Source of the DNA: Acidimicrobiales bacterium
GTDB lineage: Bacteria; Actinomycetota; Acidimicrobiia; Acidimicrobiales; Palsa-688
NCBI GenBank assembly: GCA_035508795.1
Contig: DATJMJ010000006.1
Coordinates: forward strand, 793-64,792
Direction of reading: 5' to 3'
DNA: 64,000 nucleotides
Shown here one piece after another: positions 14-28,279 of the stretch. Within the stretch, counting starts at the first letter, position 1, and the number at the start of each line of letters is the position of its first letter. A program made the translations under genes and the position numbers. The notes beneath the pieces were generated by a model that searched no databases, was not told the DNA's origin, and saw only the letters and a list, made by a program, of their open reading frames with translations.

Positions 14-1000
14 GTGCTGAAGGACGGGCGGTCGCACGGACGCCGACCGGGGGGCCGATTGGGTAGCTGGCCTGCGGCGACGACTGTCCTCGTAGGGGTG
101 ATCGGGGACCCGGTGCGCCACTCGCTTTCCCCTGTGCTGCACAATGCTGCGCTCGCCGAGCTCGGCCTCGACTGGGTCTATGTCGCCTTCCCGGTGGCCG
201 CCGGGCGGGGCCAGGCCGCCGTTGCCGCCATGCCCGAGCTGGGCATACGCGGGCTCTCGGTGACGATGCCGCACAAGGCTCCCGCTGCCGCAGCGTGCCA
301 CCGCCTCACGCCCGTCGCACAGCGGCTCGGGGTCGTAAATACGGTCACCAACGTGGCAGGCGTGCTGGTCGGCGACAGCACCGACGGGCCGGGGTTCCTG
401 GACTCCCTGGCAGACCAGGGCTGGTCGCCCGGGCAGAAGCGCTGCTTGGTCCTCGGGGCAGGTGGGGCTGCACGGGCCGTGGTCCTGTCGCTCGGCGAAG
501 CGGGCGCACGCTGGGTCGGCGTCGTCGCCCGCCAGCCCAAACAAGCTCTTTCGGTGGCTCACCTGGCCGAGCCGGTGGGTGCCGTGGCCTCCGTGGAGGC
601 CGCCGACGAGGCTGACCTCATAGTCAACGCCACGCCCGTCGGGATGAGCGGGCAAGGCGGCACCGAGGATTCCGCCGGAGGCGAGCGGGGCGAGCTCCCG
701 TTCGGGCTCGACGCCAAGAGGCTCGGCCCGGGGCAGCTTGTCGCCGACCTTGTATACGCCCCGGCCAACACAGCCCTACTGGCCGCCGCCCGTGCCCGGG
801 GAGCCGACACCACCAACGGGCTCGGCATGCTCATCTACCAAGCGGCGCGCCAGGTAAGGACCTGGACGGGCCGTGACGCCCCCGTTGAGGCAATGTCGGC
901 AGCTGCGCTCAGGGAGCTGGGCAAGCGAGCTGCGAGCCAGTCCACCGGCCGGCGCCCGGGAGGCCACTTCTCAACCTCGCCCGCGAAGTTGCCGAAGTAG
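14..1000 (+). CDS. aroE: Shikimate 5-dehydrogenase
   Basis: N-terminal VIGDPVRHSLSPVLHNAA substrate-binding signature and a GAGGAARAV Rossmann glycine loop. The frame has no stop between the window start and nt 14, so the 5' end may lie upstream of the window. Confidence 0.85.
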   Translation: MLKDGRSHGRRPGGRLGSWPAATTVLVGVIGDPVRHSLSPVLHNAALAELGLDWVYVAFPVAAGRGQAAVAAMPELGIRGLSVTMPHKAPAAAACHRLTPVAQRLGVVNTVTNVAGVLVGDSTDGPGFLDSLADQGWSPGQKRCLVLGAGGAARAVVLSLGEAGARWVGVVARQPKQALSVAHLAEPVGAVASVEAADEADLIVNATPVGMSGQGGTEDSAGGERGELPFGLDAKRLGPGQLVADLVYAPANTALLAAARARGADTTNGLGMLIYQAARQVRTWTGRDAPVEAMSAAALRELGKRAASQSTGRRPGGHFSTSPAKLPK

Positions 1001-1024
1001 CAGCAATAAGAACCGGAGGTTACA

Positions 1025-1963
1025 GTGTCGCTTGAAGGAACGCTCGAGACAATTGCGCTGCCGGACGTCCTGGCTCTGCTGTCTGTCACTGCAAAGACCG
1101 GTGAGCTGCGAGTCGAGACCGGCAACTGGGTTGGGAGCCTATGGTTGGACGCCGGCCAGGTTTCAGGCTTTCAGGTGGGGAACAACAAAGAGGCCGTAGA
1201 CGCCCTTTTCACGCTGCTGCGCCTCCGTGAAGGCAATTTCAGGTTCCACGCCGGCTCTCAGCCGCCCAATTCGGTTGGCCCGTTCGAGATCGGGCCCGTG
1301 CTCGAAGAGGCCGAGGCACGGCTCATGGAGTGGCCCTCCATCGCCGCTGCCGTGCCCTCGCTCACGACTGACTTGCGGCTCCAAAGCTCGATAGACGAGC
1401 CTGTAGCGCTCGCTCCCGACCAATGGCGCCTCGTGGCGACCATCGGCAGCGGGCTGAGCGTAGGCGAGGTGCTCGACGCCTGCGGGCTCGGCGAGTTCGA
1501 GGGCTCAAAGGCCCTCAAAGAGCTCGTGGACCTACATGTGGTCGACGTTGTGCTGCCTGTCAGCCCCGACGTCGGGGCGTCTCATGGCAGCCAGGCCGAC
1601 ACCGGTGAGTACCAGGTGCTCGGCGCAGGCGAAGACGCTGAAGCAGACGCCGACGGTGACGCCGAGGGCTTTGCCGCCGGTTTCGGCGGCGCCAGGCGGG
1701 CGCAGGCGACCGGTTGGGACCAAGGTGTGCGGCACGCGGCCGCCTACGAGGTGGTCCTTGCGGGAGACGCAGCCCCGGACGACGCTGCTGCGCCTCAAGC
1801 GGCGGTGCCGGGGACCGTGGCGACAGACGATGCCGAAATGCCCGATGTCTGGAGAGAAGAAGGCGAGGAAGAAGCGAGCCCGGCCGCAGAGGCACCCGAG
1901 GAAAAGGGCCAGCCCGTCAACCGCGGCCTCCTGCTCAAGTTCCTCGGTTCAGCTCGCAACTAG
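1025..1963 (+). CDS. DUF4388/PATAN-domain protein, first gene of the pilus cluster
   Basis: N-terminus SLEGTLETIALPDVLALLSVTAKTGELRVE...GSLWLDAGQV is the typical DUF4388 (PATAN) opening. RBS ggaggt at 1014-1019 precedes the GTG. The C-terminal half is acidic and Ala/Asp/Glu-rich. No receiver domain is visible. Confidence 0.7.
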   Translation: MSLEGTLETIALPDVLALLSVTAKTGELRVETGNWVGSLWLDAGQVSGFQVGNNKEAVDALFTLLRLREGNFRFHAGSQPPNSVGPFEIGPVLEEAEARLMEWPSIAAAVPSLTTDLRLQSSIDEPVALAPDQWRLVATIGSGLSVGEVLDACGLGEFEGSKALKELVDLHVVDVVLPVSPDVGASHGSQADTGEYQVLGAGEDAEADADGDAEGFAAGFGGARRAQATGWDQGVRHAAAYEVVLAGDAAPDDAAAPQAAVPGTVATDDAEMPDVWREEGEEEASPAAEAPEEKGQPVNRGLLLKFLGSARN

Positions 1964-2046
1964 GACCAAGTTCCCCAACTGAGGTAGACAAGGCTTGGAC
2001 CGGCGGGACGGCGAAGCCGCTCGGTCGCGAGCGGTAGGGCCAGAGG

Positions 2047-2192: not shown

Positions 2193-2215
2193 CCGATTGA
2201 CCTCGTCTCAATCGG
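2193..2215 (+). promoter_or_regulatory. Perfect 8-bp inverted repeat / hairpin in the pilB leader (CCGATTGA-N7-TCAATCGG)
   Basis: CCGATTGA at 2193-2200 and TCAATCGG at 2208-2215, 58 nt upstream of the pilB ATG, inside the locally AT-richer stretch 2110-2270. Function unknown (operator or 5'-UTR structure). Confidence 0.3.
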
Positions 2216-2272
2216 GAGCCGGAAAATGCCGAGAAATCACATTAGTGGCGGAGCCACGTTTTAGAGGAGGCC

Positions 2273-3988
2273 ATGGACACCAGGGTTCGTGATCGGGAGG
2301 GTGCGCTCTCAGAGGACGAGCAACTCGGCGTTGTCCTCGTAAAGAGCGGCATCATCACCATTGACCAGCTGGGCGAAGCGCTCGGCCGGGCGAAGGACCG
2401 CGGCGTCAACCTGGCTCGCGTCCTCATCGAAGACAAACTGCTCACGGAGGAACAGTTCGTCGGGACCCTTGCCGAGCAACTCGGCCTCGAGTTCGTCGAC
2501 CTCGCCACCTACCCTGTCGACCCGGCGGCAGCACGCCTCGTAAGCGAGGCACTCGCCCGCCGTTACCTCGCGCTCCCGATCGGCTGGTGGGAGGGCCGCC
2601 TCATAGTTGCAATGGCGGACCCCTCAAACGTGTTCGCCATCGACGATATCCGGGCGCTCACCGGCGCTGAGGTACGCCAGGTAGTCGCGACCGCCGAAGC
2701 GGTGACGGCGGCGATAAGCAAGTACCACCGCAAGGACAGCGAGGCCGAGCACATCAGTGCCCAGGCGTCCGCCAGCAGTGCCCCCCTCGAAGATGACCGT
2801 CTCACGCAGATAAAAGAAGTCCGTGAAGACGCCCCGATCGTACGGTTGGTCAACTTGTTGATAAGCCAGGCGATCACAGACCGGGCGTCGGACGTCCACG
2901 TCGAACCGACGGGCAAGGACGTCCGCATCCGTTACCGGATCGACGGGGTGCTCCACGAAGTGATGCGCTCGCCGCGCAACATCCAAAACGGCATCATCAG
3001 CCGCCTCAAGGTCATGGCCGACATAAACATCGCCGAGCGGCGCATCCCTCAAGACGGCCGTATCACGAGCTCGATCGACGGCCGGCCAGTCGACCTGCGG
3101 GTGGCAACTCTGCCCACGGTGCACGGCGAAAAGGTCGTCATGCGAGTGCTCGACAACTCTACGGCCAACCTCCGCCTGTCCGAGCTGGGTTTCCTGCCAA
3201 AGAACATGGAGCGCTACGAGTCGTCCTACCAGAAGCCTTACGGGACGCTGCTCGTCACCGGCCCGACAGGTTCGGGCAAGACGACAACCCTTTACGCGAC
3301 GCTCAATATCCTCAACCAGCCAACGAAAAACGTCATCACGGTCGAGGACCCTGTCGAGTACCAGCTCGAGGGGATCAACCAGATCCAGGTCAACGCGAAA
3401 GCCGGCCTCACGTTCGCCTCTGCGCTGCGCACTATCCTGCGCGCCGACCCCGACATTATCCTTGTCGGTGAGATCCGAGACCGGGAGACGGCGGGGATCG
3501 CGATTGAAGCCGCCCTCACCGGCCACCTCGTGCTATCGACCCTTCACACGAACGACTCTTCGACAACCCCCAACCGCCTGATCGAAATGGGGGTAGAGCC
3601 CTTCCTCGTCGGCAGCGCCCTCGACTGCATCGTCGCCCAACGTCTTGCTCGCAAACTGTGCGACCGCTGCAAGCAGTCTTACCCAACCGAGAAGGAAAAG
3701 CTGATGAGCATGGGGTGGGAGACAGTAGGTATCGAGCTGCCCTCGCAACTTTTCCGCTCGGTCGGCTGCCAGGTTTGCGGCAAGACCGGGTTCATGGGCC
3801 GCTTCGCCGTGCACGAGGTCCTCAACATCAACGAAGAAATCGAGCGGATGATCGTCGAGCACGCCCACGCCGACGACATCCGCAAGGCTGCAATAGCGGA
3901 CGGCATGCTGACTCTGCGGCATGCAGGCCTCATGGCGGCAGTCAACGGCATCACATCGCTCGACGAGGTGATGCGCGTCATCGCCTAG
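2273..3988 (+). CDS. pilB: Type IV pilus assembly (extension) ATPase, GspE/PilB family, with N-terminal T2SSE_N/MshEN-type domain
   Basis: Walker A LLVTGPTGSGKTTTLYA, Walker B ILVGEIRD, and a tetracysteine cluster CDRC...CQVCGKTG typical of PilB/GspE. N-terminal GspE_N-like domain. RBS ggagg at 2265-2269. Confidence 0.92.
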   Translation: MDTRVRDREGALSEDEQLGVVLVKSGIITIDQLGEALGRAKDRGVNLARVLIEDKLLTEEQFVGTLAEQLGLEFVDLATYPVDPAAARLVSEALARRYLALPIGWWEGRLIVAMADPSNVFAIDDIRALTGAEVRQVVATAEAVTAAISKYHRKDSEAEHISAQASASSAPLEDDRLTQIKEVREDAPIVRLVNLLISQAITDRASDVHVEPTGKDVRIRYRIDGVLHEVMRSPRNIQNGIISRLKVMADINIAERRIPQDGRITSSIDGRPVDLRVATLPTVHGEKVVMRVLDNSTANLRLSELGFLPKNMERYESSYQKPYGTLLVTGPTGSGKTTTLYATLNILNQPTKNVITVEDPVEYQLEGINQIQVNAKAGLTFASALRTILRADPDIILVGEIRDRETAGIAIEAALTGHLVLSTLHTNDSSTTPNRLIEMGVEPFLVGSALDCIVAQRLARKLCDRCKQSYPTEKEKLMSMGWETVGIELPSQLFRSVGCQVCGKTGFMGRFAVHEVLNINEEIERMIVEHAHADDIRKAAIADGMLTLRHAGLMAAVNGITSLDEVMRVIA

Positions 3989-4151: not shown

Positions 4152-5372
4152 ATGAGCAGGTTCATGGTTGGGCGCCAGCCGATCTTCGACAAGGACTTCG
4201 AGGTCCGCGGCTACGAACTGCTCTTTCGCGACCCGGGGAGGAGATTGCCAGGTGGCGACGCGATGACGGCGGACGTGCTCGTCCATGCCGGGCTCGACCT
4301 CGGCCTCGAGAACCTCGTCGGCAACAAGCTCGCTTTTGTAAACGCCACGCGCCCGTTCTTGGTGGGGGAGCAGGAAATCCCGTTCCCTCCCCAGCAGACC
4401 GTGGTCGAGATCCCCGGGACGGTGGCCTTTGACGCCGACGCCATATCGGGTTGCCGGTGGCTCGTGTCGCAGGGCTTCACCCTTGCGCTCGACGACTACG
4501 AGCTGAAAGGGAGCGAGCAGCCGCTGTTGGAGCTCGTCTCGATCGTCAAGCTCGACGTGCTCGCCCTGTCGGTCGCGGAGCTGAGACGCGACGTCGAGGA
4601 GTGCAGCGCGCTCGGGTTGGAGCTCGTGGCCGAAAAGGTCGAGACTCACGAACAGCTGGCGCAGTGCCAGGAGCTCGGCTTCGGGCTCTTCCAGGGCTAC
4701 CTGCTGTCGCGCCCCGAGATCGTCGAGGGCAATGCGCTCAGCCCGAGCAAACTGGCGTGCGTCAAGCTCGTGCACGAGCTGTGCGACCCGACAGCGACGA
4801 CCGAGGACATCCAGCGCGTCATCGAGACCGATGCCGCCCTTACCTACAGGTTCCTCCGCCTGGCAGGCGAGGGGGCGGCCCGCGGCCATTACCGGCGCAT
4901 CACTTCGGTGCACGACGGCGTGGCGGCGCTCGGCCGCGAACGTATGCGCGCCTGGGTCACCTTGATGCTGCTGTCCGACACGGGCGACGCCGTCAGCGAG
5001 CAGTTCCACATCGCCCTGGCCCGCGCCCGCATGTGCGAGCTGATCGCCACCCGTCTCGCTCCTTCGTTGTCAGGGGCGGCCTTCACCGTCGGCCTGGTCT
5101 CCGCACTCGACTTGCTCCTCGGTGCACCTGTGGCAGAGATCGTCGAGAGCCTCTCGCTCGCCGAGGAGCTGACGAGCGCCCTCACCGCAAAAGACGGCTT
5201 GCTCGGCAAGATCCTCTCCGACGTCCTCGCATGGGAAATGGGGGGCTCCGAACTGCGCCTGCGCTGCGGGCTCTCCCTCGGGAGCCTCGAACGCAGCTAC
5301 CTCGAAGCGCTGGCGTGGTCCACTCAGATCTGCGCGCTCTCCGAGGAAGAACTGGCAACAAGCGTCAGGTAG
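4152..5372 (+). CDS. EAL domain + HDOD domain protein (c-di-GMP phosphodiesterase or sensor)
   Basis: EAL-family opening QPIFDKDFEVRGYELLFR, then FVN, ALDDYELKG, VKLD, AEKVET and FQGYLLSRP motifs. The C-terminal half (KLVHELCDPTATTEDIQRVIETDAALTYRFLRLA...VAALGRERMRAWV) is HDOD-like. Confidence 0.85.
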   Translation: MSRFMVGRQPIFDKDFEVRGYELLFRDPGRRLPGGDAMTADVLVHAGLDLGLENLVGNKLAFVNATRPFLVGEQEIPFPPQQTVVEIPGTVAFDADAISGCRWLVSQGFTLALDDYELKGSEQPLLELVSIVKLDVLALSVAELRRDVEECSALGLELVAEKVETHEQLAQCQELGFGLFQGYLLSRPEIVEGNALSPSKLACVKLVHELCDPTATTEDIQRVIETDAALTYRFLRLAGEGAARGHYRRITSVHDGVAALGRERMRAWVTLMLLSDTGDAVSEQFHIALARARMCELIATRLAPSLSGAAFTVGLVSALDLLLGAPVAEIVESLSLAEELTSALTAKDGLLGKILSDVLAWEMGGSELRLRCGLSLGSLERSYLEALAWSTQICALSEEELATSVR

Positions 5373-5482
5373 CTCGCCGGGCCAGCCGGGCCCGGGCTCG
5401 AGGGCACCGTCTCGGCCGCCGATACAGGCCTCGAACGCCTGATTAGCTAAAGCGCTGGCCAAAGGCCGCCGAAGAGAAATTG

Positions 5483-7027
5483 ATGCAAACTGCCTCGCGC
5501 AAGGTCGGAGAGTTCCTAGTCGACCGCAAAGTACTGTCGAAGGACGCGCTCGAGTACGCCCTCAGCAAAGAGGTCGAGACAGGCGTCCCTCTAGCCAAGA
5601 TCCTCTCGGCCGAAGGCATCGTCAGCGAGCGCGACCTCGTCGCCGCGATCGCCGACCAGCTGAAGATGGCCTTCTGGGATCCGACGACGACCCCTGTCTC
5701 GCCACTCGTGGACGGGGTGGTGCCTGCCGAGCTGGCTCGCAAGCACCAGGTGGTCGGGATCGCCCTCGACGGGGACACGCTCCTCGTCGCCACGGACAAC
5801 CCCCTCGACGAGGGGGTCATGAAGATCATCAGCGAGGTGACCGGGTGGAAAACCCGGCCGTGCCTCGCGACCCGGAGCGACATCGACGGCGCAATCGCGG
5901 CCATGTACGGGCCGAGCACCGCAGGTGGTGCGGGGGCGCAGCTCCTCGGCGAGGAGACCAAGCCTCTCCATGTCAACCAGATGCTCGTCCGGCTTGTCGA
6001 GGAGCGGGGTTCGGACCTCCATCTCTCGGCCGGCCGCCCGCCGATGATCCGTGTCGACGGCGACCTTCGTGCGATGGACGAGTTCGAGGTCCTCACCCCG
6101 TCGAGGATCCGCGACCTGATCTACGAGATCCTTTCGCAGAAGATCCGCGAGCGCTTCGAGGAAGATCTCGAGCTCGACACTTCGCACATAGTCCCGGGCG
6201 TGGCTCGCTTCCGGCTGAACGTCTTCCAACAGCGCGACGCCGTCGGCGCTGTCTTCAGGGCGATCCCCTTCGAGATCAAGACCCTCGAGCAGCTCGGGAT
6301 CCCCACCGAAGTCCGCCAGTTCGCCGACCTCCCGAGAGGCCTCGTGCTGGTGACCGGCCCGACCGGTTCGGGCAAGTCGACCACGCTCGCTGCCCTGATC
6401 GACATCATCAACGAGTCCAAGCCGCTGCACATCATGTCGGTGGAGGACCCGATCGAGTACTTGCACAGCCACAAAACCGCAGTCGTGAACCAGCGGGAAG
6501 TGGGGGAGGACACCAAGGGTTTTGCGAACGCCCTCAAGCATGTGCTCCGCCAGGACCCAGACGTGATCCTGATCGGCGAGCTCCGTGACCTCGAGACGAT
6601 CTCAACGGCGCTGACCGCTGCAGAGACGGGCCACTTGGTCTTTGCGACCCTCCACACCCAGGACGCCCCCCAGTCGATCGACCGCATCATCGACGTGTTC
6701 CCCGCCCACCAGCAGCAGCAGATCCGTACCCAGCTCGCCACCACGATCCAGGGGGTCGTCACCCAGCAGCTGCTGCCTCGCGCGGGCGGGACAGGCCGCG
6801 CCGTCGCATGCGAGATCCTTGTTGCGACGCCCGCCGTACGGAACCTGATCCGGGAGGGCAAGACCCACCAGATTTACAGCACTATGCAAGCCGGTGCCAA
6901 GTACGGGATGAACAGCATGGACCAGATGCTCGCCGACCTCGTAAAGAGGGGCGTCGTAAGCATCGAAGTCGCCGAGGAGCGGTGTTCCAACCCCGAAGAC
7001 CTGCAGCGCCTGGTCCATTCAGCTTAG
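5483..7027 (+). CDS. pilT: PilT-type twitching-motility (retraction) ATPase with an extra ~150-aa T2SSE_N/MshEN-like N-terminal domain
   Basis: The C-terminal ~360 aa are canonical PilT: LVTGPTGSGKSTTLAA, ILIGELRD, ATLHT, and the AVRNLIREGK (AIRNLIRE) motif. The N-terminal extension resembles the PilB N-domain. ATG at 5483 (a TTG at 5480 is also possible). Confidence 0.9.
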   Translation: MQTASRKVGEFLVDRKVLSKDALEYALSKEVETGVPLAKILSAEGIVSERDLVAAIADQLKMAFWDPTTTPVSPLVDGVVPAELARKHQVVGIALDGDTLLVATDNPLDEGVMKIISEVTGWKTRPCLATRSDIDGAIAAMYGPSTAGGAGAQLLGEETKPLHVNQMLVRLVEERGSDLHLSAGRPPMIRVDGDLRAMDEFEVLTPSRIRDLIYEILSQKIRERFEEDLELDTSHIVPGVARFRLNVFQQRDAVGAVFRAIPFEIKTLEQLGIPTEVRQFADLPRGLVLVTGPTGSGKSTTLAALIDIINESKPLHIMSVEDPIEYLHSHKTAVVNQREVGEDTKGFANALKHVLRQDPDVILIGELRDLETISTALTAAETGHLVFATLHTQDAPQSIDRIIDVFPAHQQQQIRTQLATTIQGVVTQQLLPRAGGTGRAVACEILVATPAVRNLIREGKTHQIYSTMQAGAKYGMNSMDQMLADLVKRGVVSIEVAEERCSNPEDLQRLVHSA

Positions 7028-7090: not shown

Positions 7091-8344
7091 ATGCCGCAAG
7101 CTACTTATGACTATAAGGTCCGTGACGCCGCCGGCAAGGTCCTTCAAGGCACCCTCGAAGCAGACAACACAACCCTCGTCGTAAAGCGCCTCCGCCAGAT
7201 GGGTTACGTGCCCATCGACATCTCAGCTCGCGCCTCTGGCAAGAATGCCATGCGCAAGGACCTCCACTTACCCGGGAGGGCAGAGCACGTCCCGCTCAAG
7301 GTGCTCTCGATCTTCAGCCGGCAGTTTGCCACGCTGATCAGTTCCGGCCTGACGCTCTTCAAAGCGATCACGATCCTCGAGGAGCAGACGGAGCACCCCG
7401 GACTTGCCAAGGTCGTCGGGGACGTCCGCTTGCGCGTCGAGCGTGGCATCTCGCTTTCGGAAGCGTTGGCCGAGCACCCGAAGACTTTTAGCCAGCTGTT
7501 CGTGGCAATGGTGCGTGCCGGAGAGGCCAGCGGCGGCTTGGACAAAGCGCTCCTCAACCTGGCGACTACAATGGAGAAGCAGGTCGAGCTGCGTGGAAAG
7601 ATCAAATCGGCGATGGCTTACCCGATCGCGGCACTCTGCATTGTCCTGCTCATCGGTGCCGCGGTCCTCCTGTTCATCGTCCCTGTGTTCAAAGGGATCT
7701 TCAAACAGCTCGGCGGCCAGCTACCGACGCCAACACTGGTGCTCGTAGACATCTCCAACATTGCCGTCCACTACTTCCCGCTCGTCCTGGTCGGCTTTGT
7801 CGCCCTGGCACTGGGCTTCCGCCACCTCATCAAAACTCCCAACGGTCGCGCCGCCTGGGACGTGACAAAACTCAAGGCGCCCATCTTTGGCGAGCTGGCC
7901 CGCAAGACAGCCGTTTCCCGGTTCACTTCTACCCTGTCTGCGCTGCTCTCCGCCGGCGTGCCCGTGTTGGAGTCTCTCGAGATAACGCGCCAGACCGTTC
8001 ACAATACGGTCGTCGCCAAGGGGATCGACTCAATCATTGACGGTGTCAAAAAGGGTGAGCCCATCGCGCGTGGTCTAAGCGGCCACCCGGTGTTCCCCAC
8101 GATGATCTCGCATATGATCAGTGTGGGTGAGGAGACCGGCGGCCTCGACACGATGCTCTCGAAAGCGGCCGAGTTCCTCGACGGCGAGATCGAAAGGACT
8201 ATCGAGTCGTTGACATCATTGTTGGAGCCGCTCATGATCGTCGTCCTCGGAGGAGCCGTCGGCAGCATGGTCATTTGCCTTTATTTGCCGATGTTCAAGG
8301 TGGACACCCTGATCAATGGGAGCGGCGGCAACAGCGGTAGCTGA
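7091..8344 (+). CDS. pilC: Type IV pilus platform protein, GspF/PilC family
   Basis: 417 aa with two T2SSF-type repeats (FSRQFATLISSGLTLFKAI... and FTSTLSALLSAGVPVLESL...) and three hydrophobic segments. Confidence 0.92.
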   Translation: MPQATYDYKVRDAAGKVLQGTLEADNTTLVVKRLRQMGYVPIDISARASGKNAMRKDLHLPGRAEHVPLKVLSIFSRQFATLISSGLTLFKAITILEEQTEHPGLAKVVGDVRLRVERGISLSEALAEHPKTFSQLFVAMVRAGEASGGLDKALLNLATTMEKQVELRGKIKSAMAYPIAALCIVLLIGAAVLLFIVPVFKGIFKQLGGQLPTPTLVLVDISNIAVHYFPLVLVGFVALALGFRHLIKTPNGRAAWDVTKLKAPIFGELARKTAVSRFTSTLSALLSAGVPVLESLEITRQTVHNTVVAKGIDSIIDGVKKGEPIARGLSGHPVFPTMISHMISVGEETGGLDTMLSKAAEFLDGEIERTIESLTSLLEPLMIVVLGGAVGSMVICLYLPMFKVDTLINGSGGNSGS

Positions 8345-8546: not shown

Positions 8547-10190
8547 CTACCCGGGAATGGCGGGGCACCCGTGCACCGGCTCGGCATAGCTGTAGAGGTG
8601 TTCGGGCAGGGCAAAGCCGTACTCGTCGTAATTGGTAACCGCCACGAGCTTCGCTCGGGGATGGCCCCCGAACTTGAAGCTCGATATGACCCCGCACGTC
8701 GGCGTGACACGGATCGGCCCGTCCGCCTCTACCGGGGCCATCGGGTACTCGGCGTACCAACCGTTCCAGGCGAAACCGCCATCGACGCTCGAAGGAGCCT
8801 CGCCTGCTCGCACCAGTGCCTGCCCTGCGCGCCATACCGCGCTTCCGTACGCGTCCGAGTTGAGCGTCAGCGCTAATGCGCTCAAGCCCACAAGGCCCGC
8901 AAGCGCAATAGTCGCATAGGGCAGGCGGCGCGGTGCCGGAAAGGCTCCCTTGGTGACTTTGCCGCGGGTGCTGCGCGCCAGGATGGCCGCCAAGGGGAAG
9001 ACCAACGGGTAGAGGTAGCGGTCATATGACCGGCTGGCGGAACACAACGTGTACGCCACCACGCCAGTCCCAATGAGGACCGCGAAGGCTCCGAGGAGGG
9101 TACTCGAGTTCACCTCCCATCTTCTTTTGAGAAGGCAGGTAAGGTTTTGTGCAGCCAAAGCCGCCAAGGCAGCACCTGAAACGATCGCGCCGACATTGAA
9201 GATCGCCCATGTACCAGGTGCAAAAACGTCGGGCCGGGAATAGTCTTGGAGATCGTTGCCCATGGCTCCTTGTACCGTGAGGTAGTTCCCGCGAAAAACC
9301 ATGCCGGCGGTATGGTAGAGCACCCCGCCGGCGACAATTACAAGTGCCGCCACGACGACCGGTCCGCCTACCCTGGGCCGCAGGCGCTTCAGTACCGAGG
9401 GCAAGAGAGGAAGAAGGCAAAACGAGAGCGTGAAGTACAGCTGGAAGACCTCTGCGACGGTTGAGAGGTTTGGGCTCGACAGTTGTGTCACCTGTTGCCC
9501 GAACTTGCCGGCCAGGAGGTAAACAAGCTCGCATACTGCCAACGTCGCGGCGCCGAGGATGACCGTGGGCCTTAGATATGAGCGTCGCTGGAGTGCCGCG
9601 CACAAAAGGACGGCCGCCGGTGCCGTGATACCGAATTGGCGGATAGAAAATGCAAAGCATCCTGCGAGCATCGAAGCTGCAAGGAGCGTGTACCGCCGGC
9701 GGCCCGAGTTCTTCAAGGCGTAGGAGCCCGACAATAGGCAAATAAGCTCGGCTGAGAACGCCGGCACATCTGTCATGAAGGTGGCCGTGTTCAACAAGAA
9801 CCCGGGGGAGGCAAGCGTCACCAGCACGCAGGCGGCAGCTCGACCTGTCGAGAGCAGTTGGCGTGCGAGCAAGTACGCTGCGACCAAGCCCGCACTTGCA
9901 AGGACCACTGTCGATATCACTGGCGCCCACGTGCCACCCCCCAGCACCAAAACAAACGGTGCGGCCCAAAGCACCTGCCCGATGAGCGTCATGTCCCCCC
10001 AGGGGACGAAGTGGAGATGGCCTGTCTTGACGAAACGCAAGACGGTCACACGATAAGCCCAATCATCGTTGCTCGGGAGGGGCAGCATGTGAAGTACGTA
10101 GGAGATGACGAGCGGCGTGACCGCGCCCAACACGACGAGGCCGGTAACCACGAGGATCTCGCGGCTCCGGCGCCCGCGAGGCAACCGCAA
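8547..10190 (-). CDS. Polytopic membrane protein, GT-C (ArnT/PMT-like) glycosyltransferase candidate
   Basis: Only the C-terminal ~545 aa of ORF 8547-10925 are used, because the upstream part overlaps the GT2 gene on the other strand. There are >=10 hydrophobic helices, an acidic SNDDW motif in the first extracytoplasmic loop, and a soluble C-terminal domain. The start is uncertain: TTG 10190/10184, GTG 10151 or ATG 10088. Confidence 0.55.
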   Translation of the reverse strand: MRLPRGRRSREILVVTGLVVLGAVTPLVISYVLHMLPLPSNDDWAYRVTVLRFVKTGHLHFVPWGDMTLIGQVLWAAPFVLVLGGGTWAPVISTVVLASAGLVAAYLLARQLLSTGRAAACVLVTLASPGFLLNTATFMTDVPAFSAELICLLSGSYALKNSGRRRYTLLAASMLAGCFAFSIRQFGITAPAAVLLCAALQRRSYLRPTVILGAATLAVCELVYLLAGKFGQQVTQLSSPNLSTVAEVFQLYFTLSFCLLPLLPSVLKRLRPRVGGPVVVAALVIVAGGVLYHTAGMVFRGNYLTVQGAMGNDLQDYSRPDVFAPGTWAIFNVGAIVSGAALAALAAQNLTCLLKRRWEVNSSTLLGAFAVLIGTGVVAYTLCSASRSYDRYLYPLVFPLAAILARSTRGKVTKGAFPAPRRLPYATIALAGLVGLSALALTLNSDAYGSAVWRAGQALVRAGEAPSSVDGGFAWNGWYAEYPMAPVEADGPIRVTPTCGVISSFKFGGHPRAKLVAVTNYDEYGFALPEHLYSYAEPVHGCPAIPG

Positions 10191-10319
10191 CGTTGCGCTA
10201 TCGCTTGGCACCTGCGTCTTGATCGCGAGAGCCGGCGCGTCCGAGACTGCGAGCACACTGAGTAGATCGGCCGAAAGGTCCCCTAGCTCAAGTCGGGCGG
10301 TCCGCTGGCCGATACCGCA

Positions 10320-11285
10320 GTGATGACGGTGACCGAGACCCAGAGGCCCGCTGGTGTTGGGGAGACGCTCGCCGCCCACAGCAACCACGGTGGCGCCGGT
10401 CCCGCCCGCCAGCCGCACCCCCAAGGCCCTGCGAGCCCTGCGCGGGCGCGCCAGGTCCTCCTCGAGGTAGTGGTCCCCGTCTACAACGAAGAAGCCGACC
10501 TGTCCGACAACATCCGCCGGTTGCGGGGCTACCTGGATGCGAAATTGCCTTTCGAGAGCCTTCTGACCATCGCTGACAACGGCAGTACCGACAAGACGTG
10601 GGCTATCGCTCGATCCCTTTCGCAGCAACTCGCAGGCACCCGAGCCGTCCACATCGACTGTCCCGGCCGGGGGAGGGCCTTGAGGAGCGTATGGGAACGG
10701 TCCGACGCCGAGGTCGTCGCCTACATGGACATCGACTTGTCGACCGACCTCCGTGCCCTCCGTCCGCTGCTGAGGCCCATCCTGACAGGCCAAGCTGACC
10801 TGGCAATCGGCTCCCGTCTCGCCAAAGGCTCCCAAACCCAGCGGAGCATACGCCGGGACGTCATCTCTCGCGCCTACAACGCGCTCTTGAGGACGGTGCT
10901 CAAGAGCGACTACTCGGACGCACAATGCGGCTTCAAGGCAATGAACGCCGAGGTCGCGCGTGCTGTCCTCCCACAGGTCCTGGACAATGACTGGTTCTTT
11001 GACACAGAGTTGCTTGCGGTGGCGCAGGCGCGGGGCCTTCGTACGGTCGAGGTGCCTGTGCGCTGGGTGGAGGACCCTGGCAGCCGGGTCAAGTTAGTAC
11101 GTACAGCCTTGCAGGACCTGCGAGGCGTATGCCGGCTCCTCTTCAGCCCGACGCTACGGGAGCAACGGTCACTGGCTGCCCAGAGGCAGGCCTGGGGACG
11201 TGCGGCCAAGGAGCCCGCCGTGCCCTCGAGAAGGCAGCGGTCGCTGCTCGAGGTGTCGGGCATCGGCCGTTCTGCGGCGCTCTAG
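10320..11285 (+). CDS. GT2-family glycosyltransferase, polyprenol-phosphate sugar synthase type (Ppm1/ArnC/DPM1-like)
   Basis: VVVPVYNEEADL...IADNGSTDKTW...YMDIDLSTD (DxD)...AQCGFKA motifs, typical of dolichol/polyprenol-phosphate hexosyltransferases. Confidence 0.85.
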   Translation: MMTVTETQRPAGVGETLAAHSNHGGAGPARQPHPQGPASPARARQVLLEVVVPVYNEEADLSDNIRRLRGYLDAKLPFESLLTIADNGSTDKTWAIARSLSQQLAGTRAVHIDCPGRGRALRSVWERSDAEVVAYMDIDLSTDLRALRPLLRPILTGQADLAIGSRLAKGSQTQRSIRRDVISRAYNALLRTVLKSDYSDAQCGFKAMNAEVARAVLPQVLDNDWFFDTELLAVAQARGLRTVEVPVRWVEDPGSRVKLVRTALQDLRGVCRLLFSPTLREQRSLAAQRQAWGRAAKEPAVPSRRQRSLLEVSGIGRSAAL

Positions 11286-11298
11286 CGCCCCGGGCGCG

Positions 11299-13218: not shown

Positions 13219-13338
13219 ACGGTCCAAGGTGGCCTGCCGAAACCTAATTGAGCGACTAGCCAATTGGGGCCACCTAATGCCGCGAGTCCCGCTAGCAGGT
13301 GGCCGCGCTTAACACCTACGTACCCAGAAAGGACCGAA

Positions 13339-14658: not shown

Positions 14659-14736
14659 CGCCGAGGCAAGACGCGAGCTGTTCAAGACCGCGGCCGACTG
14701 TGCCGATATTTCTCGTCAGAGGCTGAGCCCTGGAGG

Positions 14737-16377: not shown

Positions 16378-16973
16378 AACGCCAACACATTGCTGCCGGA
16401 GCTGCCGGAGCTGTGCTGCTCCTCGTCCTCGTCTGGTATGTCGCGCTTTGGTCGCCCGAAGGTTCGCACCTGAAGGCAGCGCAACAGCGCCTCTCCGAAG
16501 CACAGGCCCAGGTAGCCAGTGCGCAAGAGCAGCTTCTCCTCCTACGGGCGGAACAGCCGAAGTTGAAGGCTGAAAAGAAGGTGCTCGCAGACCTCGTGAC
16601 CGCATTGCCCAATGGGCCGAGCCTCGACCAACTTCTCCGGACGGTGCAACAAGCAGCCGTTGCGTCAGGTGTAGACCTCACATCGCTCAGCACGCCCCAG
16701 CCCAGCGGATGGGCTGCCCAGGCAGGCGCTGCCGCATCTTCGTCGGCCGGGCCAGCGGGTGCGCAGTTCATTGCCATGAGCGCCAATGTCGGCGGGACGG
16801 CCGCGGACGTCCTGCAATTCGTCAAGGCATTGGACAGCCAACCCCGGATCTACGTCGTCACGAGCTTCTCACTGGGCACCAATGCCACTGAGCAGACCAA
16901 CGTGACGTTCGACGCCTTCTTCGTCTCGGGTGCTACGAGTGACCCGACGTTCCCGGGCCCAGCAGCTCCTTGA
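16374..16973 (+). CDS. pilO: PilO-like pilus alignment protein
   Basis: N-terminal TM (AAGAAGAVLLLVLVWYVALW), a coiled coil (AQQRLSEAQAQVASAQEQLLLLRAEQPKL), then an alpha/beta domain. ATGA start/stop overlap with pilMN. Confidence 0.7.
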   Translation: MKRQHIAAGAAGAVLLLVLVWYVALWSPEGSHLKAAQQRLSEAQAQVASAQEQLLLLRAEQPKLKAEKKVLADLVTALPNGPSLDQLLRTVQQAAVASGVDLTSLSTPQPSGWAAQAGAAASSSAGPAGAQFIAMSANVGGTAADVLQFVKALDSQPRIYVVTSFSLGTNATEQTNVTFDAFFVSGATSDPTFPGPAAP

Positions 16974-25649: not shown

Positions 25650-26230
25650 GCGTCCAGCATCCGGGCCGTGGACCGGCCCGGCAACGGATCTTGCTCGTCG
25701 GGATGATGGGTGCCGGTAAGTCGCAGGTGGCGCGCCTCGTGGCCCGGCGTCTCGGCTGGTCCCGCGCCGACACCGACGAGATGGTCGAAGCTGAAGCCGG
25801 GATGTCTGTGGCCGAGATGTTCGCCTCGGTCGGCGAGGCGGAGTTCAGGGTCGCCGAGTCGCGTGCGATCGCGGCCTTGCGCGAGACCACCGGCCCGCTT
25901 GTCGTGAGCCTCGGCGGCGGATCGGTCCTGAGCTCGGCCAACCGGGAGCTGATCCGGTCGCTCGGGGCCGTTGCCTGGCTTCGTGCAAAGCCCCTGACCC
26001 TCGCCCGGCGGGTCGGGCAGGGAAAGGGCCGTCCCCTCCTGGCGACCGCCGACGACCGCCCAGCCGTCGCCCTGGAGCGGATAGCCGCCGAACGGCAGAA
26101 CCTATACGCAGAGGTCGCCGACGTCGTCATCGACGTGGACGGCCTTTCCCCTGGCCGGGTGGCCTCACGGCTGCTTGCCGAGCTGGGCGAGCTGGCTGAC
26201 CTGGCTGATGTCAAGGGCGCAGGGCGCTAA
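25646..26230 (+). CDS. aroK: Shikimate kinase
   Basis: ILLVGMMGAGKSQVARLVARRLGW...DTDEMVE (P-loop plus shikimate-binding D). The ATG overlaps the aroC stop (ATGA). Only the last 194 aa of track ORF 24917-26230 are used. Confidence 0.9.
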   Translation: MSVQHPGRGPARQRILLVGMMGAGKSQVARLVARRLGWSRADTDEMVEAEAGMSVAEMFASVGEAEFRVAESRAIAALRETTGPLVVSLGGGSVLSSANRELIRSLGAVAWLRAKPLTLARRVGQGKGRPLLATADDRPAVALERIAAERQNLYAEVADVVIDVDGLSPGRVASRLLAELGELADLADVKGAGR

Positions 26231-26243
26231 CGTCGGCGGCGCT

Positions 26244-27311
26244 ATGTCCCCCCTGAGACAGCTCGAGGTCGACCTCGGCGCCCGTAGCTACCCCGTCGTC
26301 GTGGGCAATGGCGCCCGCCACCACCTGGCGTCTTTCGCGCCGGGCACCGCCCGCAAAGCGGCTGTGGTCACTCAGGCCGGCGTCGGCGTGGGGGTGAGCA
26401 CGGGCCTCGCCGAGGAGGTGTTCCTCATCGGGGAGGGCGAGGAAGCCAAAAACCTCGCCACGGTCGAAGGACTTTGCCGCAGCTTTGCTCGCTTCGGCCT
26501 GACAAGGTCCGACATTGTCGTCGCAGTAGGCGGCGGCGTGGTGAGCGACGTAGCGGGCTTTGCTGCCGCTGTTTACCACCGCGGCGTTGCTTTTGCCAAC
26601 GTCGCCACGACCCTGCTCGCACAGGTGGACGCCGCTATCGGTGGGAAGGTGGGCGTCAACCTTCCCGAGGGCAAAAACCTCGTGGGCGCCTTCTGGCAGC
26701 CGTTGGCGGTCGTCTGCGACACAGAGGTCCTGTCGAGCCTGCCTCCTCGCGAATACCGCAGCGGCCTCGGGGAAATGGCCAAGTACGCCTTCCTTGGCGT
26801 CGACAGCCTGCCCGAGCTCGACCTCGACGAGGCGGTGGCCCGTTGCGTCGAGTGCAAAGCCCGCTTTGTCGCGGCAGACGAACGAGAATCGGCGGCCCAG
26901 GTCGGTCCTCAGGCAGCGGGGACGACACCGGCGGCGGGGCCGGTGCAGGGCCGTGCCTTGCTCAATTACGGCCACACGCTCGGCCACGCCCTCGAGACTG
27001 CCGGCCACTACGACTTGCGCCACGGCGAGGCGGTGGCTGTAGGGCTTGTGTTCGCCGCCCATTTGGCACGCCGGCTCGGGCGTGTGGACGACGGCGCGGT
27101 GGCGTACCACGAGCGCGTCGTAGCCGCCTACGACCTGCCCTCCCGCTTGCCGCAGGGAGCAGACCTCGCTGAGCTCGTCCGCGTGATGAGGCGTGACAAA
27201 AAAGCTGTCCACAATGGGCTGACTTTCGTGCTCGACGGCCCGGCGGGGCTCGAAGTGGTAAACGGCGTCGACGAGACCGAGGTAGTGAGCGCCATGAAGG
27301 AGCTCCAGTAG
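26244..27311 (+). CDS. aroB: 3-dehydroquinate synthase
   Basis: VAVGGGVVSDVAGFAAAVYHRGVAFANVATTLLAQVDAAIGGKVGVN and LNYGHTLGHALE metal-binding motifs. Contains a short Ala/Gly/Pro-rich insertion (ADERESAAQVGPQAAGTTPAAGP). Confidence 0.9.
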   Translation: MSPLRQLEVDLGARSYPVVVGNGARHHLASFAPGTARKAAVVTQAGVGVGVSTGLAEEVFLIGEGEEAKNLATVEGLCRSFARFGLTRSDIVVAVGGGVVSDVAGFAAAVYHRGVAFANVATTLLAQVDAAIGGKVGVNLPEGKNLVGAFWQPLAVVCDTEVLSSLPPREYRSGLGEMAKYAFLGVDSLPELDLDEAVARCVECKARFVAADERESAAQVGPQAAGTTPAAGPVQGRALLNYGHTLGHALETAGHYDLRHGEAVAVGLVFAAHLARRLGRVDDGAVAYHERVVAAYDLPSRLPQGADLAELVRVMRRDKKAVHNGLTFVLDGPAGLEVVNGVDETEVVSAMKELQ

Positions 27312-27484
27312 CCCGGCTCGTGCGGTGCGCCGGGCCGGGGCCTGGTCCGCCAGGTCAGCGACCTTGGTCCCTAAGCCCGCCCGGCGCTCCTGCCGATGAA
27401 AATTGCTGAGATGACCTCGCCTTTTTTCCTTCACCCGCCTCAGATAGGCCCGGCAACGCCTCCGAAGGGCCCTGCGGCCGCGCT

Positions 27485-28279
27485 ATGTTGATCGCACCGG
27501 GAGCCGTACCGGCCCTGATGCTCGGCCTCGTCGGCTTGGTCATCGGGTCTTTTGCCAACGTGGTGATCTACCGCGTACCGGCCGGCCGCTCTATCGTCTC
27601 GCCCGGTTCGGCCTGCCCCAAGTGCGGCGCGGAGGTACGCCCGTTCGACAACCTGCCCGTCGTGTCGTGGTTCGTCCTGCGCGGCCGTTGCCGGGACTGC
27701 CGGGCAGCGATCTCGCCCCGTTACCCGGCCATAGAAGCTCTGACAGGCCTTGTGTTCGCGGGCCTCGGGTGGCGCTTTGGCATTTCCTGGACGGGGGCGG
27801 GGGAGGCAGTGCTTGCCGCCGGCCTCGTGATCCTCGGCTTCATCGACCTCGACCACATGCTCCTGCCGCGCCGCATCGTCTACCTGACCTTGACCCTCGT
27901 CGGCGTGGCGTTCGTGATAGGGGCAGCGAGCGGCAGCCAGTGGCACCGCCTCGGGGTAGCGGCAATTTGCGCCGTCGTGCCGTGGGCATTGTTCTTCGCG
28001 ATCAATTTCATCAGCCCCAAGGCGCTCGGTTTTGGCGACGTCCGCCTCGCCCTGCTGATCGGGTTCGGGCTCGGGTGGCTGGGAGCCGGCTACGCGTTCC
28101 TGGGTTTCGTGATAGCGAGCGTCCTCGGGTCAGTTGTCGGCGTCACGCTTATGGCACTGGGCAAAGCCGGCAGGCGCACGCCGATCCCGTTCGGGACCTT
28201 TCTCGCAGCCGGAGCGCTCATTGCAGCACTGGCGGGCAGCCCCATCGTCAACTGGTACACGACGCAGATCCACCACTGA
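27485..28279 (+). CDS. pilD: Prepilin peptidase / N-methyltransferase family A24
   Basis: N-terminal CPKCG...CRDCR zinc-finger (DiS-P-DiS) region, multiple TM helices, and the catalytic Asp motif GFGDVRLALLIGFGLGW. Confidence 0.9.
   Translation: MLIAPGAVPALMLGLVGLVIGSFANVVIYRVPAGRSIVSPGSACPKCGAEVRPFDNLPVVSWFVLRGRCRDCRAAISPRYPAIEALTGLVFAGLGWRFGISWTGAGEAVLAAGLVILGFIDLDHMLLPRRIVYLTLTLVGVAFVIGAASGSQWHRLGVAAICAVVPWALFFAINFISPKALGFGDVRLALLIGFGLGWLGAGYAFLGFVIASVLGSVVGVTLMALGKAGRRTPIPFGTFLAAGALIAALAGSPIVNWYTTQIHH

Follow-up and report, generated by a model that had tools for sequence, protein, structure and literature searches.

In a 64,000-nt window from an uncultured soil Acidimicrobiales MAG (89% complete, 5.6% contamination), the pilus genes lying between aroE and aroC-aroK-aroB very probably form a type IVa pilus (T4aP) locus that is native and was inherited vertically, at a site dating from the ancestor of several Actinomycetota classes or earlier. 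The locus is real yet largely ordinary, an old inherited arrangement and not the insertion into the aro backbone that a sequence-only reading of the window had proposed. As predicted from its genes, it is a complete T4aP machine with PilT and without a secretin in a monoderm actinobacterium.

Pfam and NCBIfam HMM searches supported every core component, and all the genes named in the sequence-only reading were found where it had placed them or nearly so. The upstream boundary is aroE, encoding shikimate dehydrogenase (14..1000, plus strand; Shikimate_dh_N 86 bits, SDH_C 52 bits). The first gene after it encodes a PATAN (DUF4388) protein that lacks a receiver domain (1025..1963, plus; PF14332 53 bits, residues 4-103) and lies 5' of pilB in 39/53 class loci and in other classes too. 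The extension ATPase gene pilB (2273..3988, plus; T2SSE 460 bits), whose product has an MshEN N-domain (76 bits) and scores 643 bits against TIGR02538, just below the cut-off of 676, is followed by a gene for a degenerate EAL-HDOD protein that retains the C-terminal half of EAL only (4152..5372, plus; EAL 41 bits, profile positions 114-236 only; HDOD 38 bits). The retraction ATPase PilT (5480..7027, plus; TIGR01420 487 bits over residues 165-507, cut-off 319) carries an extra N-terminal MshEN domain (57 bits, residues 63-147) and has more than 534 relatives in the genome contigs searched. Next come the platform gene pilC (7091..8344, plus; T2SSF 213 bits in two stretches, NF052607 408 bits) and, farther on, a pilM-pilN fusion (14737..16377, plus) and pilO (16374..16973, plus; PF04350 32 bits, cut-off 22). 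The PilM half of the fusion was confirmed by HMM (PilM_2 131 bits, TIGR01175 152 bits); the other half had no HMM match of its own and is assigned to PilN by its topology with one transmembrane helix, a VSLLPPE motif and homology to separate actinobacterial PilN genes that match PF05137. The downstream boundary is aroC-aroK-aroB (24492..27311, plus; NF003793 413 bits, NF010552 135 bits, TIGR01357 272 bits), with aroC at 24492-25649, aroK at 25646-26230 and aroB at 26175-27311. As reported earlier, pilD follows aroB directly (27485..28279, plus; A24_N_bact 117 bits, Peptidase_A24 39 bits); this prepilin peptidase/N-methyltransferase is the sole PF01478 match in the whole genome. The downstream backbone is likewise present (aroQ, pepQ, efp, nusB, pyrC, carB, pyrF, mIHF, gmk, rpoZ, metK, and priA). 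The reported lack of a PilQ secretin also held, as neither the secretin (PF00263) nor the Omp85/BamA (PF01103) model had a match across the 89%-complete genome in an HMM search in which the diderm controls were all positive.

According to the insertion hypothesis, a 23.5-kb pilus island was acquired horizontally and inserted into a conserved aroE-aroC backbone of the lineage. Its support comes from composition, GC being 62-65% in the locus versus 68-70% in the flanks, from the adjacency of aroE and aroC in large actinobacterial genomes, and from patchy accessory genes. Comparison of the aroE-aroC interval in relatives, however, showed the same site and gene order throughout the class and, beyond it, in several others. 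In 49/53 informative Acidimicrobiia loci aroE lies 5' of the pil genes, and pil gene order is alike in 10 relatives from the family and order. Among loci chosen outside the class for orthologous-grade PilB (at least ~50% identity), long contigs and best PilB scores, aroE and/or aroC flank the pil genes in 20/20 loci from at least 14 other families (G116 is still within the class), and in G170 as well. Named genomes with this adjacency are Nitriliruptoraceae, Egicoccus, a Solirubrobacterales MAG, Pseudokineococcus, Sanguibacter hominis, a Demequinaceae MAG and Spongisporangium articulatum, so the arrangement occurs in Nitriliruptoria, Thermoleophilia and some Actinomycetes. Lower-scoring PilB paralogues (G051, G285, G130) lie away from the aro site. 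Orthologous-grade pilB-pilT-pilC genes also lie far from aroE in Cellulomonas pakistanensis, Agrococcus, Cryobacterium, Nocardioides, Sporichthyaceae and Planosporangium, and relocation has therefore occurred in Actinomycetes. The distribution would fit one ancestral site for the entire phylum. A linkage of pilMNO(PQ) with aroK-aroB is shared with the Acidimicrobiales locus by E. coli K-12 and by A. baylyi (PMC5542475).

The remaining evidence points the same way. An unrooted PilB+PilC tree recovered the family (97), the order (99), the class (99) and every multi-member family, thus matching taxonomy, and its agreement with the AroE tree (Mantel r=0.71) was reached by 0/2000 permutations. Because the trees are unrooted, gain and loss were separated by parsimony over the distribution. 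In PilB-less actinobacterial genomes aroE stands directly beside aroC or a lone pilD lies upstream of aroC; the lone pilD left at the aro site of PilB-less G046 is as expected after loss. Since the pil locus occupies the site across classes, the directly adjacent aroE and aroC of Streptomyces-sized genomes are best read as derived through loss. All 7 relatives checked show a GC dip in their pil genes, which follows each genome's own GC; in pilB and pilT, GC3 falls within the housekeeping range. Neither tRNA genes nor flanking or att-like repeats were found at the locus, and the screened ORFs gave no integrase or transposase match. Insertion of the core machine is thus largely refuted by shared synteny, a taxonomy-following tree and the recurrent GC dip, and we consider horizontal acquisition of the island very improbable. 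The patchy accessory genes do imply that parts of the interval were gained or lost recently: the glycosyltransferase module occurs in 2/80 class loci and EAL-HDOD in only 9/80. What is lineage-specific is this accessory content, namely EAL-HDOD, the glycosyltransferase module, and the large pilins bearing a lectin or Ig repeats.

Loss of the locus in many actinobacteria, the truncated EAL domain and the PilB score slightly under the NCBIfam equivalog cut-off could also suggest a decaying remnant from which pili are no longer made. We regard this as scarcely credible: all core pil ORFs are full length with unbroken reading frames, across their whole length core proteins share 50-90% identity with their counterparts in relatives, GC3 of the pil genes is that of typical coding sequence, and the positions of the promoter-like sites described below are conserved.

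All three glycosyltransferases of the sequence-only reading were supported, but the first lies on the minus strand and is shorter than the raw ORF (8547..10211, start inferred; codon-position GC fits the minus frame). It is a GT-C enzyme divergent from GT2 (PMT_2 28.6 bits, cut-off 26.1). The second is a GT2 enzyme of the polyprenyl-phosphate sugar synthase type (10320..11285, plus; Glycos_transf_2 67 bits) and the third a GT-C enzyme (11200..13218, plus; PMT_2 89 bits, YkcB_C 67 bits) with homologues that G007 and L040 carry within their pil loci. Two paralogous PilA-like pilins, as judged by repeat comparison, are encoded by pilA1 (13339..13914, plus; N_methyl 38 bits, cleavage site DEG|FTLIELMVV) and pilA2 (14026..14658, plus; N_methyl 35 bits, PDG|FTLIELMVV); a GC-rich inverted repeat lies 3' of pilA1 (13955-13986). 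Between pilO and the minor pilins we found a gene missed earlier, for a GNAT acetyltransferase (17314..17961, minus, start probably near 17847; Acetyltransf_1 40 bits). N_methyl matches bore out two of the three minor pilins, one at 19630..20337 (minus; 33.5 bits, QKG|FTLVE) and a modular one of 1358 aa (20334..24410, minus; 24 bits, DGG|FTLIE) with a pilin head, seven Ig-like repeats of ~120 aa and a C-terminal domain. An AF2 model of its repeat is all-beta (pLDDT 83) and retrieved generic Ig-like folds in Foldseek (E ~3e-3). The third (17876..19675, minus), with a ricin-B lectin domain (Ricin_B_lectin 35 bits), has a hydrophobic, PilX-like N-terminus and no canonical GFxxxE; L042, Pseudokineococcus and L226 have homologues placed after the minor pilin.

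Gene identities, intact frames, synteny, tree congruence, the conserved promoter-like sites and the genes for WhiG and RsiG were observed directly; that the bacterium makes and retracts pili, glycosylates pilins, binds c-di-GMP and adheres is predicted from its genes. From family knowledge, PilD would process the G|F prepilins by cleavage and methylation. The membrane platform would consist of PilC, PilO and the PilM-PilN fusion, and on it a fibre of PilA1 and/or PilA2 would be extended by PilB and retracted by PilT. The three minor pilins may prime the fibre and occupy its tip, displaying the lectin and the Ig-like stalk for adhesion, and pilins are probably glycosylated on the outer side of the membrane by the GT2 and both GT-C enzymes, with a polyprenyl-phosphate sugar as donor. 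The ancestral core locus might instead encode chiefly a DNA-uptake (competence) pilus or a secretion pseudopilus rather than an adhesive or motility pilus. In many bacteria DNA uptake is powered by PilT-bearing T4aP machines (PMC6370729), protein secretion has been linked to a T4P gene set in Clostridium perfringens (PMC11580942), and the sequence is compatible with both roles. The seven-Ig-repeat and lectin-bearing pilins nevertheless suggest surface binding, no ComEA, ComEC or DNA-binding pilin genes were seen in the locus, and ComG-type HMM scores are far under those of the PilB and PilC models. A competence or secretion role is therefore unlikely, and an inherited pilus with a predicted adhesive tip is preferred.

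Kimura reportedly published in 2019 on the type IV pili of Actinoplanes zoospores, as cited in PMC11522434. The claim that such loci are poorly described in this phylum holds only in part: for Acidimicrobiia, no experimentally characterised T4P was found in the literature searched, but elsewhere in the phylum surveys record T4aP (PMC6668835, PMC6916266) and a T4P cluster of Rubrobacter is reported to be under WhiG/RsiG/c-di-GMP control (PMC8325347). Here WhiG, RsiG and the promoter-like sites are known from sequence. The genome encodes a WhiG that scores 343 bits, at the cut-off of NF004935, and an RsiG with twin motifs (PF22802 99 bits; PDB 6pfj E=9e-17), and pilD is adjoined by its sole conservon (28323..31865, minus; ATP_bind_1 91 bits, DUF742 72 bits, Robl_LC7 70 bits, HATPase_c 43 bits) comprising the GTPase gene cvnD (28323-28916; the single gene of its type in the genome), cvnC (DUF742, 28900-29250), cvnB (Roadblock, 29266-29697) and the kinase-like cvnA (29694-31865). 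PilB and PilT score 40.3 and 38.2 bits against the c-di-GMP motif model NF053729 (cut-off 38); PilB MshEN has two 24-residue motif-like segments spaced by 5 residues, and the MshEN motifs each fit only 9/11 constrained positions. Both motors would respond to c-di-GMP through their MshEN domains, and further inputs may come from the conservon, the PATAN protein and the degenerate EAL-HDOD protein. One point was counted against such control: c-di-GMP might both sequester WhiG, turning pil genes off, and activate MshEN-PilB.

New in this locus, together with WhiG/RsiG and the conservon beside pilD, are putative sigma-28/WhiG-type promoters. Six such sites lie within 120 nt 5' of pil-locus starts versus 0.02 expected from shuffles, and none was found before 20 other genes. 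All six are on the plus strand: before pilB (TCAA-N16-GCCGAGAA, 2208..2235, ending 38 nt before the start), pilT (5448..5475, 5 nt before the start, which implies a leaderless mRNA), GT2 (10288..10315, also 5 nt), pilA1 (13216..13243), pilMN (14682..14709) and pilD (27372..27399). A weaker, less certain minus-strand site lies inside aroC (24620..24647), 210 nt upstream of the 1358-aa pilin gene. The predicted promoter before GT2 links the glycosyltransferase module with the pilus regulon, and a comparable site lies 5' of the GT-C gene of G007. The pilT site is placed alike in G002, G009 and G007, and the pilMN site is kept in G007, G008, G013 and G017 (0 mismatches) and also in G019.

The window corresponds to C6, one of 253 contigs in a MAG of 4.09 Mb (89% complete, 5.6% contamination), and its closest public relatives are MAGs labelled Acidimicrobiales or Acidimicrobiaceae. 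ORFs were chosen by codon-position GC and then scanned with Pfam and NCBIfam models. The gene assignments of the sequence-only reading, which had described a complete type IVa-like pilus locus (14–28279) between aroE and aroC-aroK-aroB, hold with four corrections, and PilB, PilT, PilC, PilM, PilO, the pilins, and PilD are each supported by profile matches. PilB combines T2SSE (460 bits) with an MshEN domain, and its top model is TIGR02538 (643 bits, below the equivalog cut-off of 676). PilT matches TIGR01420 over residues 165–507 (487 bits, cut-off 319) and carries an additional N-terminal MshEN domain. The platform protein PilC matches PF00482 (T2SSF; 213 bits) in two stretches, PilM matches TIGR01175 (152 bits, cut-off 133), PilO matches PF04350 (32 bits, cut-off 22), and PilD has the A24_N_bact and Peptidase_A24 domains of a bifunctional prepilin peptidase. 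There are four N_methyl matches, each with a class III signal peptide of the form G|FTL(I/V)E. The scans also confirmed aroE, a PATAN/DUF4388 gene, two PilA-like pilins, two canonical minor pilins, and aroC-aroK-aroB, as well as the expected downstream backbone of aroQ, pepQ, efp, nusB, pyrC, carB, pyrF, mIHF, gmk, rpoZ, metK, and priA. In the EAL-HDOD protein, the EAL profile is matched over the C-terminal half only.

Some details of the inventory had to be revised. Three glycosyltransferases, one GT2 and two GT-C, are indeed encoded; however, the first GT-C gene is a minus-strand gene with an end near 10211, and the long raw ORF runs antisense into GT2. Two of the three proposed minor pilins are canonical, whereas the third, a ricin-lectin protein (17876–19675, minus strand), has a PilX-like hydrophobic N-terminus but lacks a GFxxxE signal. 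The PilMN fusion stands for its PilM half; searching its C-terminal half directly with Pfam gave no PilN match, and this half was assigned by transitive homology and topology, as it contains a VSLLPPE motif together with a single transmembrane helix and is homologous to separate actinobacterial genes that match PF05137. A GNAT gene between pilO and the minor pilins had been omitted. ORFs 17098–17430 and 17659–18093 were considered as extra pilins and rejected, because both lack a pilin N-terminus and neither matched an HMM; the latter is antisense to the GNAT and ricin-lectin genes. Elsewhere in the genome there are two further T2SSE-family ATPases at C171:17918–18742 and C25:28821–29411 (C-numbers denote contigs), one a PilT/PilU-sized protein of 363 aa and the other a more distant match (66 bits). 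Neither a secretin nor an Omp85 family member was found in the genome, and diderm control genomes did match; within the limit set by 89% completeness, this fits the monoderm envelope that had been proposed from the absence of PilQ. Judged by its sequences, the locus is a monoderm T4aP system and would work like one.

The same reading had proposed that the pilus genes were inserted into a conserved aro backbone. To evaluate this claim, we compared the aroE-aroC interval with that of relatives, and the locus proved to be present at the same site across the class and beyond. PilB reaches E < 1e-100 in the majority of the family's sampled genomes and in several other families of the order. Stretches of 11–40 kb fetched from ten family and order relatives have pilB adjoining aroE in every case, and aroC and/or aroK-aroB follow pilO in all eight whose stretch extends to the downstream aro genes. 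We further retrieved 80 Acidimicrobiia loci with the MshEN-PilT protein; 53 of these have at least 6.5 kb of upstream sequence, and aroE lies upstream of pilB-pilT in 49 of the 53. The typical compact order, also seen in the cultured strain IMCC26256, is aroE-(PATAN)-pilB-pilT-pilC-pilA-pilD-pilMN-pilO-aroC-aroK-aroB. In an even sample of Actinomycetota, 183 of 251 genomes encode PilB at E < 1e-90. Twenty loci on long contigs were compared; 19 represent at least 14 families from other classes, and the remaining one (IMCC26256) belongs to a different family within the class. In all 20, aroE and/or aroC flank the pil genes, and the same holds for the sampled genome G170. Adjacency extends to Nitriliruptoria (Nitriliruptoraceae, Egicoccus, Nitriliruptor), Thermoleophilia (a Solirubrobacterales MAG), and Actinomycetes (Pseudokineococcus, Sanguibacter hominis, a Demequinaceae MAG, Spongisporangium articulatum). 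The set pilB-pilT-pilC occurs with no aroE within 6 kb in Cellulomonas pakistanensis, Agrococcus, Cryobacterium, Nocardioides bruguierae, Sporichthyaceae, and Planosporangium, and the lower-scoring PilB paralogs of G051, G285, and G130 sit away from the aro site.

Genomes that lack PilB show the site in its empty form. In three of four such genomes (two of the three are 7.5–8.5 Mb in size) aroE abuts aroC, and in the fourth a lone pilD lies immediately upstream of aroC. The lone pilD of the Actinomycetes MAG SMAG_U9354 (G046; fetched loci L135/L223, 11165–11887), which has no PilB at E ≤ 1e-90, precedes aroC-aroK-aroB and looks like a relic of a lost pilus locus. A prepilin-peptidase relic may also exist in Mycobacterium and Corynebacterium. 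Corynebacterium glutamicum encodes a peptidase A24 gene. The relic pilD used as a query matched only five loci, none of them in the model genera.

Phylogenetic analysis is in agreement with vertical descent. A PilB+PilC tree of 28 genomes recovered every multimember family, with SH-aLRT support of 97 for the family, 99 for the order, and 99 for the class, and pairwise distances in this tree and in an AroE tree are correlated (Mantel r = 0.71, reached by none of 2,000 permutations; 14 of 25 splits shared). The sole feature that suggests a foreign origin is the lower GC of the locus, and this recurs in all seven relatives tested, scaling with the GC of each genome; GC3 of pilB and pilT resembles that of housekeeping genes. 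We found no tRNA and no flanking or border repeats at the locus, and the ORFs screened with Pfam and NCBIfam had no integrase or transposase match. The insertion claim is thus refuted, and a horizontally acquired island was rejected on the same grounds, namely, presence at the same site in relatives with congruent trees, the absence of mobility marks, and a GC dip common to orthologous loci. The data are most simply explained by an ancient locus passed on vertically, followed by losses and some relocations. Accordingly, the pilus locus within the shikimate cluster is the inherited state and Streptomyces-like genomes with aroE next to aroC are the reduced one, which matters for annotating the many uncultured Actinomycetota of soil and water, Acidimicrobiia among them, that probably attach by means of retractile pili.

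A comparable linkage is found in Proteobacteria, as hofMNOPQ-aroK-aroB in E. coli K-12 and in Acinetobacter baylyi, where the T4P operon includes aroK and aroB (PMC5542475). As in the proteobacterial pilMNOPQ/hofMNOPQ-aroK-aroB arrangement, PilM/N/O genes lie immediately upstream of aroK-aroB; in Actinomycetota, however, the gap accommodates the entire machine, with pilB, pilT, pilC, and the pilins among its genes, and the locus is flanked by aroE and aroC and lacks PilP and PilQ. No explicit mention of pil-aro linkage in Gram-positives was found in the literature searched.

Several loci in the comparison deserve separate mention. In the family member G007 (G007:C141, 14000–53999; loci L016+L017), about 20 kb (approximately 12.4–33.4 kb of the joined stretch) with a second T2SSE/T2SSF pair and a further PilT-like gene separates pilT from pilB, which indicates a true insertion inside the ancestral locus in that genome. 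Two tandem full-length pilB genes with 51–55% identity to the query lie between aroE and pilT in loci L122 (G042), L125 (G059), and L126 (G146), which come from actinobacterial families with small genomes (1.3–1.8 Mb). Three loci from MAG records named "Bordetella parapertussis" or "Acidobacteria bacterium" (L085, CALQAT020000026.1; L175; L188) have a typical actinobacterial pilB-pilT-pilC, in L085 and L175 also with aroE upstream of the pil genes, and these contigs are probably mislabelled or misbinned.

Superimposed on this common core are lineage-specific genes, and the aroE-aroC interval measures 23.5 kb here versus about 13 kb in the compact version. Of the 80 class loci, nine contain EAL-HDOD and two contain glycosyltransferase genes; in G002, which belongs to the same genus, pilC is directly followed by pilA. 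The position of pilD behind aroB (27485–28279) is a relocation in this subclade. The minor-pilin operon is convergent with the main operon and includes a giant minor pilin of 1,358 aa (20334–24410, minus strand) with seven repeats of about 120 aa. The structural model of the repeat is an all-beta sandwich (pLDDT 83), for which Foldseek returned, at E of about 3e-3, generic Ig-like folds (PKD, CARDB, filamin). Between the two PilA-like genes lies a GC-rich inverted repeat (13955–13986; GCGGCGGCGCCGGG...GGTGCCGCCGC), and pilA1 has its own sigma-28 site, whereas pilA2 has none within two mismatches. The inverted repeat together with the site at pilA1 only suggests that pilA1 encodes the major pilin and that read-through into pilA2 is attenuated.

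Candidate sigma-28 sites were identified using the criterion of Schumacher et al. 2021 (PMC8325347) for the WhiG regulon, TAAA-N(15–17)-GCCGATAA with up to two mismatches and a spacer of 15–17 nt. Of eight matching sites in the 64-kb window, six lie within 120 nt upstream and on the correct strand of pilB, pilT, GT2, pilA1, pilMN, and pilD, and a seventh is situated 210 nt ahead of the giant pilin gene. By contrast, 20 other genes of the window had no such site before them, and shuffled sequence yielded 0.02 such placements. The pilT site is kept at the same position in G002, G009, and G007, and the pilMN site recurs in five genomes, matching perfectly in G017; relatives additionally have sites at pilA, PATAN, EAL-HDOD, and, in G007, a GT-C gene. 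Before pilT (5448–5483) and GT2 (10288–10322), the −10-like elements are 5 nt from the start codons, a distance suggesting that the predicted transcripts of both genes would be leaderless. The strongest indication obtained here that the glycosyltransferase module acts together with the pilus is the GT2 site. When the whole window was scanned with Rfam at gathering thresholds, nothing matched, and so no c-di-GMP riboswitch is seen.

WhiG and RsiG are both encoded away from the pilus locus. WhiG (C11:4040–4711) matches NF004935 with 343.4 bits against a cut-off of 343, and RsiG (C23:19712–20248) matches PF22802 with 99 bits and Streptomyces RsiG (6pfj) over its full length (E = 9e-17). Of its twin motifs E(x)3S(x)2R(x)3Q(x)3D, the first is exact (EMELSYVRRLAQARID) and the second has H for Q. 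WhiG control of T4P has been predicted in Jonesiaceae, Sanguibacteraceae, Cellulomonadaceae, and Cryptosporangiaceae in a 2026 preprint; Acidimicrobiia are mentioned neither there nor in Schumacher et al. 2021 (PMC8325347), and the predicted promoters are an extension of the known WhiG regulon to this further class.

The motors themselves are putative c-di-GMP receptors. MshEN (PF05157) scores 76 bits in PilB and 57 bits in PilT, and the NCBIfam c-di-GMP motif model NF053729 scores 40.3 and 38.2 bits, respectively, against a cut-off of 38. Both domains consist of two 24-residue segments with the expected 5-residue spacing, and each segment conforms to only 9 of the 11 constrained positions of the relaxed motif (PMC5013675), a source in which PilT is not mentioned. 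With predicted WhiG/RsiG promoters, MshEN on both motors, and EAL-HDOD, the locus would be a compact monoderm example of multilevel c-di-GMP control.

Among described systems, the nearest are the WhiG-controlled T4P cluster of Rubrobacter radiotolerans and R. xylanophilus, which is under an (RsiG)2-(c-di-GMP)2-WhiG switch (Schumacher et al. 2021, PMC8325347), and, in terms of function, the modular-pilin T4aP of Firmicutes (PMC6916266). In common with Rubrobacter, the system described here is an actinobacterial, secretin-less T4aP cluster with WhiG and RsiG in the genome, several sigma-28 consensus promoters (TAAA / GCCGATAA) within the cluster, and c-di-GMP enzymes or sensors in or linked to it. 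It differs in belonging to Acidimicrobiia, in a PilT with MshEN, in sigma-28 sites also before a glycosyltransferase gene and pilD, and in an RsiG of the twin-motif type with PF22802 in two stretches, and its promoters are predictions from sequence. Like Streptococcus sanguinis, Clostridium perfringens, and C. difficile (PMC6916266), it has PilB/PilT/PilC/PilD/PilM/N/O in a single locus that lacks a secretin, more than one pilin of the major type, minor pilins that are large and "modular" and carry lectin or adhesin modules, and an MshEN-type PilB, which binds c-di-GMP in the case of C. perfringens PilB2 (PMC11656802). Unlike these Firmicutes systems, it comes from another phylum, has PilM fused to PilN, MshEN on PilT, and predicted WhiG promoters, and is nested in a shikimate gene cluster with a glycosyltransferase module and a conservon alongside.

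Type IV pili of Actinoplanes missouriensis zoospores were reportedly treated by Kimura et al. in 2019 (J Bacteriol 201:e00746-18; cited in PMC11522434). As summarised in bioRxiv 10.64898/2026.01.14.699351, the pili of this species are reported to mediate adhesion and to depend on a FliA/WhiG-family factor. That actinomycete T4P system has been studied experimentally; its context is a flagellated zoospore, and in the Micromonosporales relative Planosporangium the pil locus lies away from aroE. Because T4aP in Actinobacteria are already recorded in surveys (PMC6668835), the locus is no new kind of system. It does offer testable links of pili to pilin glycosylation and to a conservon, and the parts deserving further study are MshEN-PilT, the glycosylation module with its predicted sigma-28 promoter, the lectin and Ig-repeat pilins, and the conservon.

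Directly after pilD and on the opposite strand is a complete conservon (cvnD-cvnC-cvnB-cvnA, 28323–31865) comprising cvnA (HATPase_c and HAMP), cvnB (Roadblock; Robl_LC7, 70 bits), cvnC (DUF742, 72 bits), and cvnD (GTPase; ATP_bind_1, 91 bits). Its cvnD-type gene is the only one in the genome. The same four-gene set makes up the CvnABCD conservons of Group 2 of the MglA/MglB family (Wuichet & Søgaard-Andersen 2015, PMC4316618), in which CvnD is an MglA-family and CvnB an MglB-family protein; such modules are known to have PATAN genes as neighbors. A PDB sequence search for MglA-like identity of CvnD gave only weak Ras/Arf/Rab matches (E of about 0.1–0.7) and was set aside.

Known conservons are tied to Streptomyces development or mycobacterial gyrase protection, whereas here the sole copy abuts pilD, and other actinobacteria have conservons or Roadblock-PATAN-GTPase sets right beside pilB. 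In G130, from the same order, the neighbor of a non-aro pilB is a full conservon (L141, 12337–20100), and in Cellulomonas pakistanensis cvnB-cvnC-cvnD immediately precede pilB (L190, 3104–7600); CvnD from these two loci, neither of which is next to aroE, is 57–59% identical to that of the window. In 10 of 19 loci from other classes, a GTPase homolog, often with Roadblock and PATAN genes, is encoded within 6 kb upstream of pilB. No conservon-pilus link was found in the literature searched. The genomic context is suggestive of a pilus role, and it is conceivable, though we consider it rather improbable, that a small-GTPase/Roadblock module, here the lone conservon plus the PATAN protein, is a dedicated actinobacterial T4aP regulator like MglA/MglB of Myxococcus; if true, this would give the conservon family an ancestral function. 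Near the conservon, the plus-strand ORFs 31003–31899 and 32190–32570 had no match in the Pfam screen, and a minus-strand ORF (31778–32938), a coiled-coil protein according to the sequence-only reading, abuts the start of cvnA.
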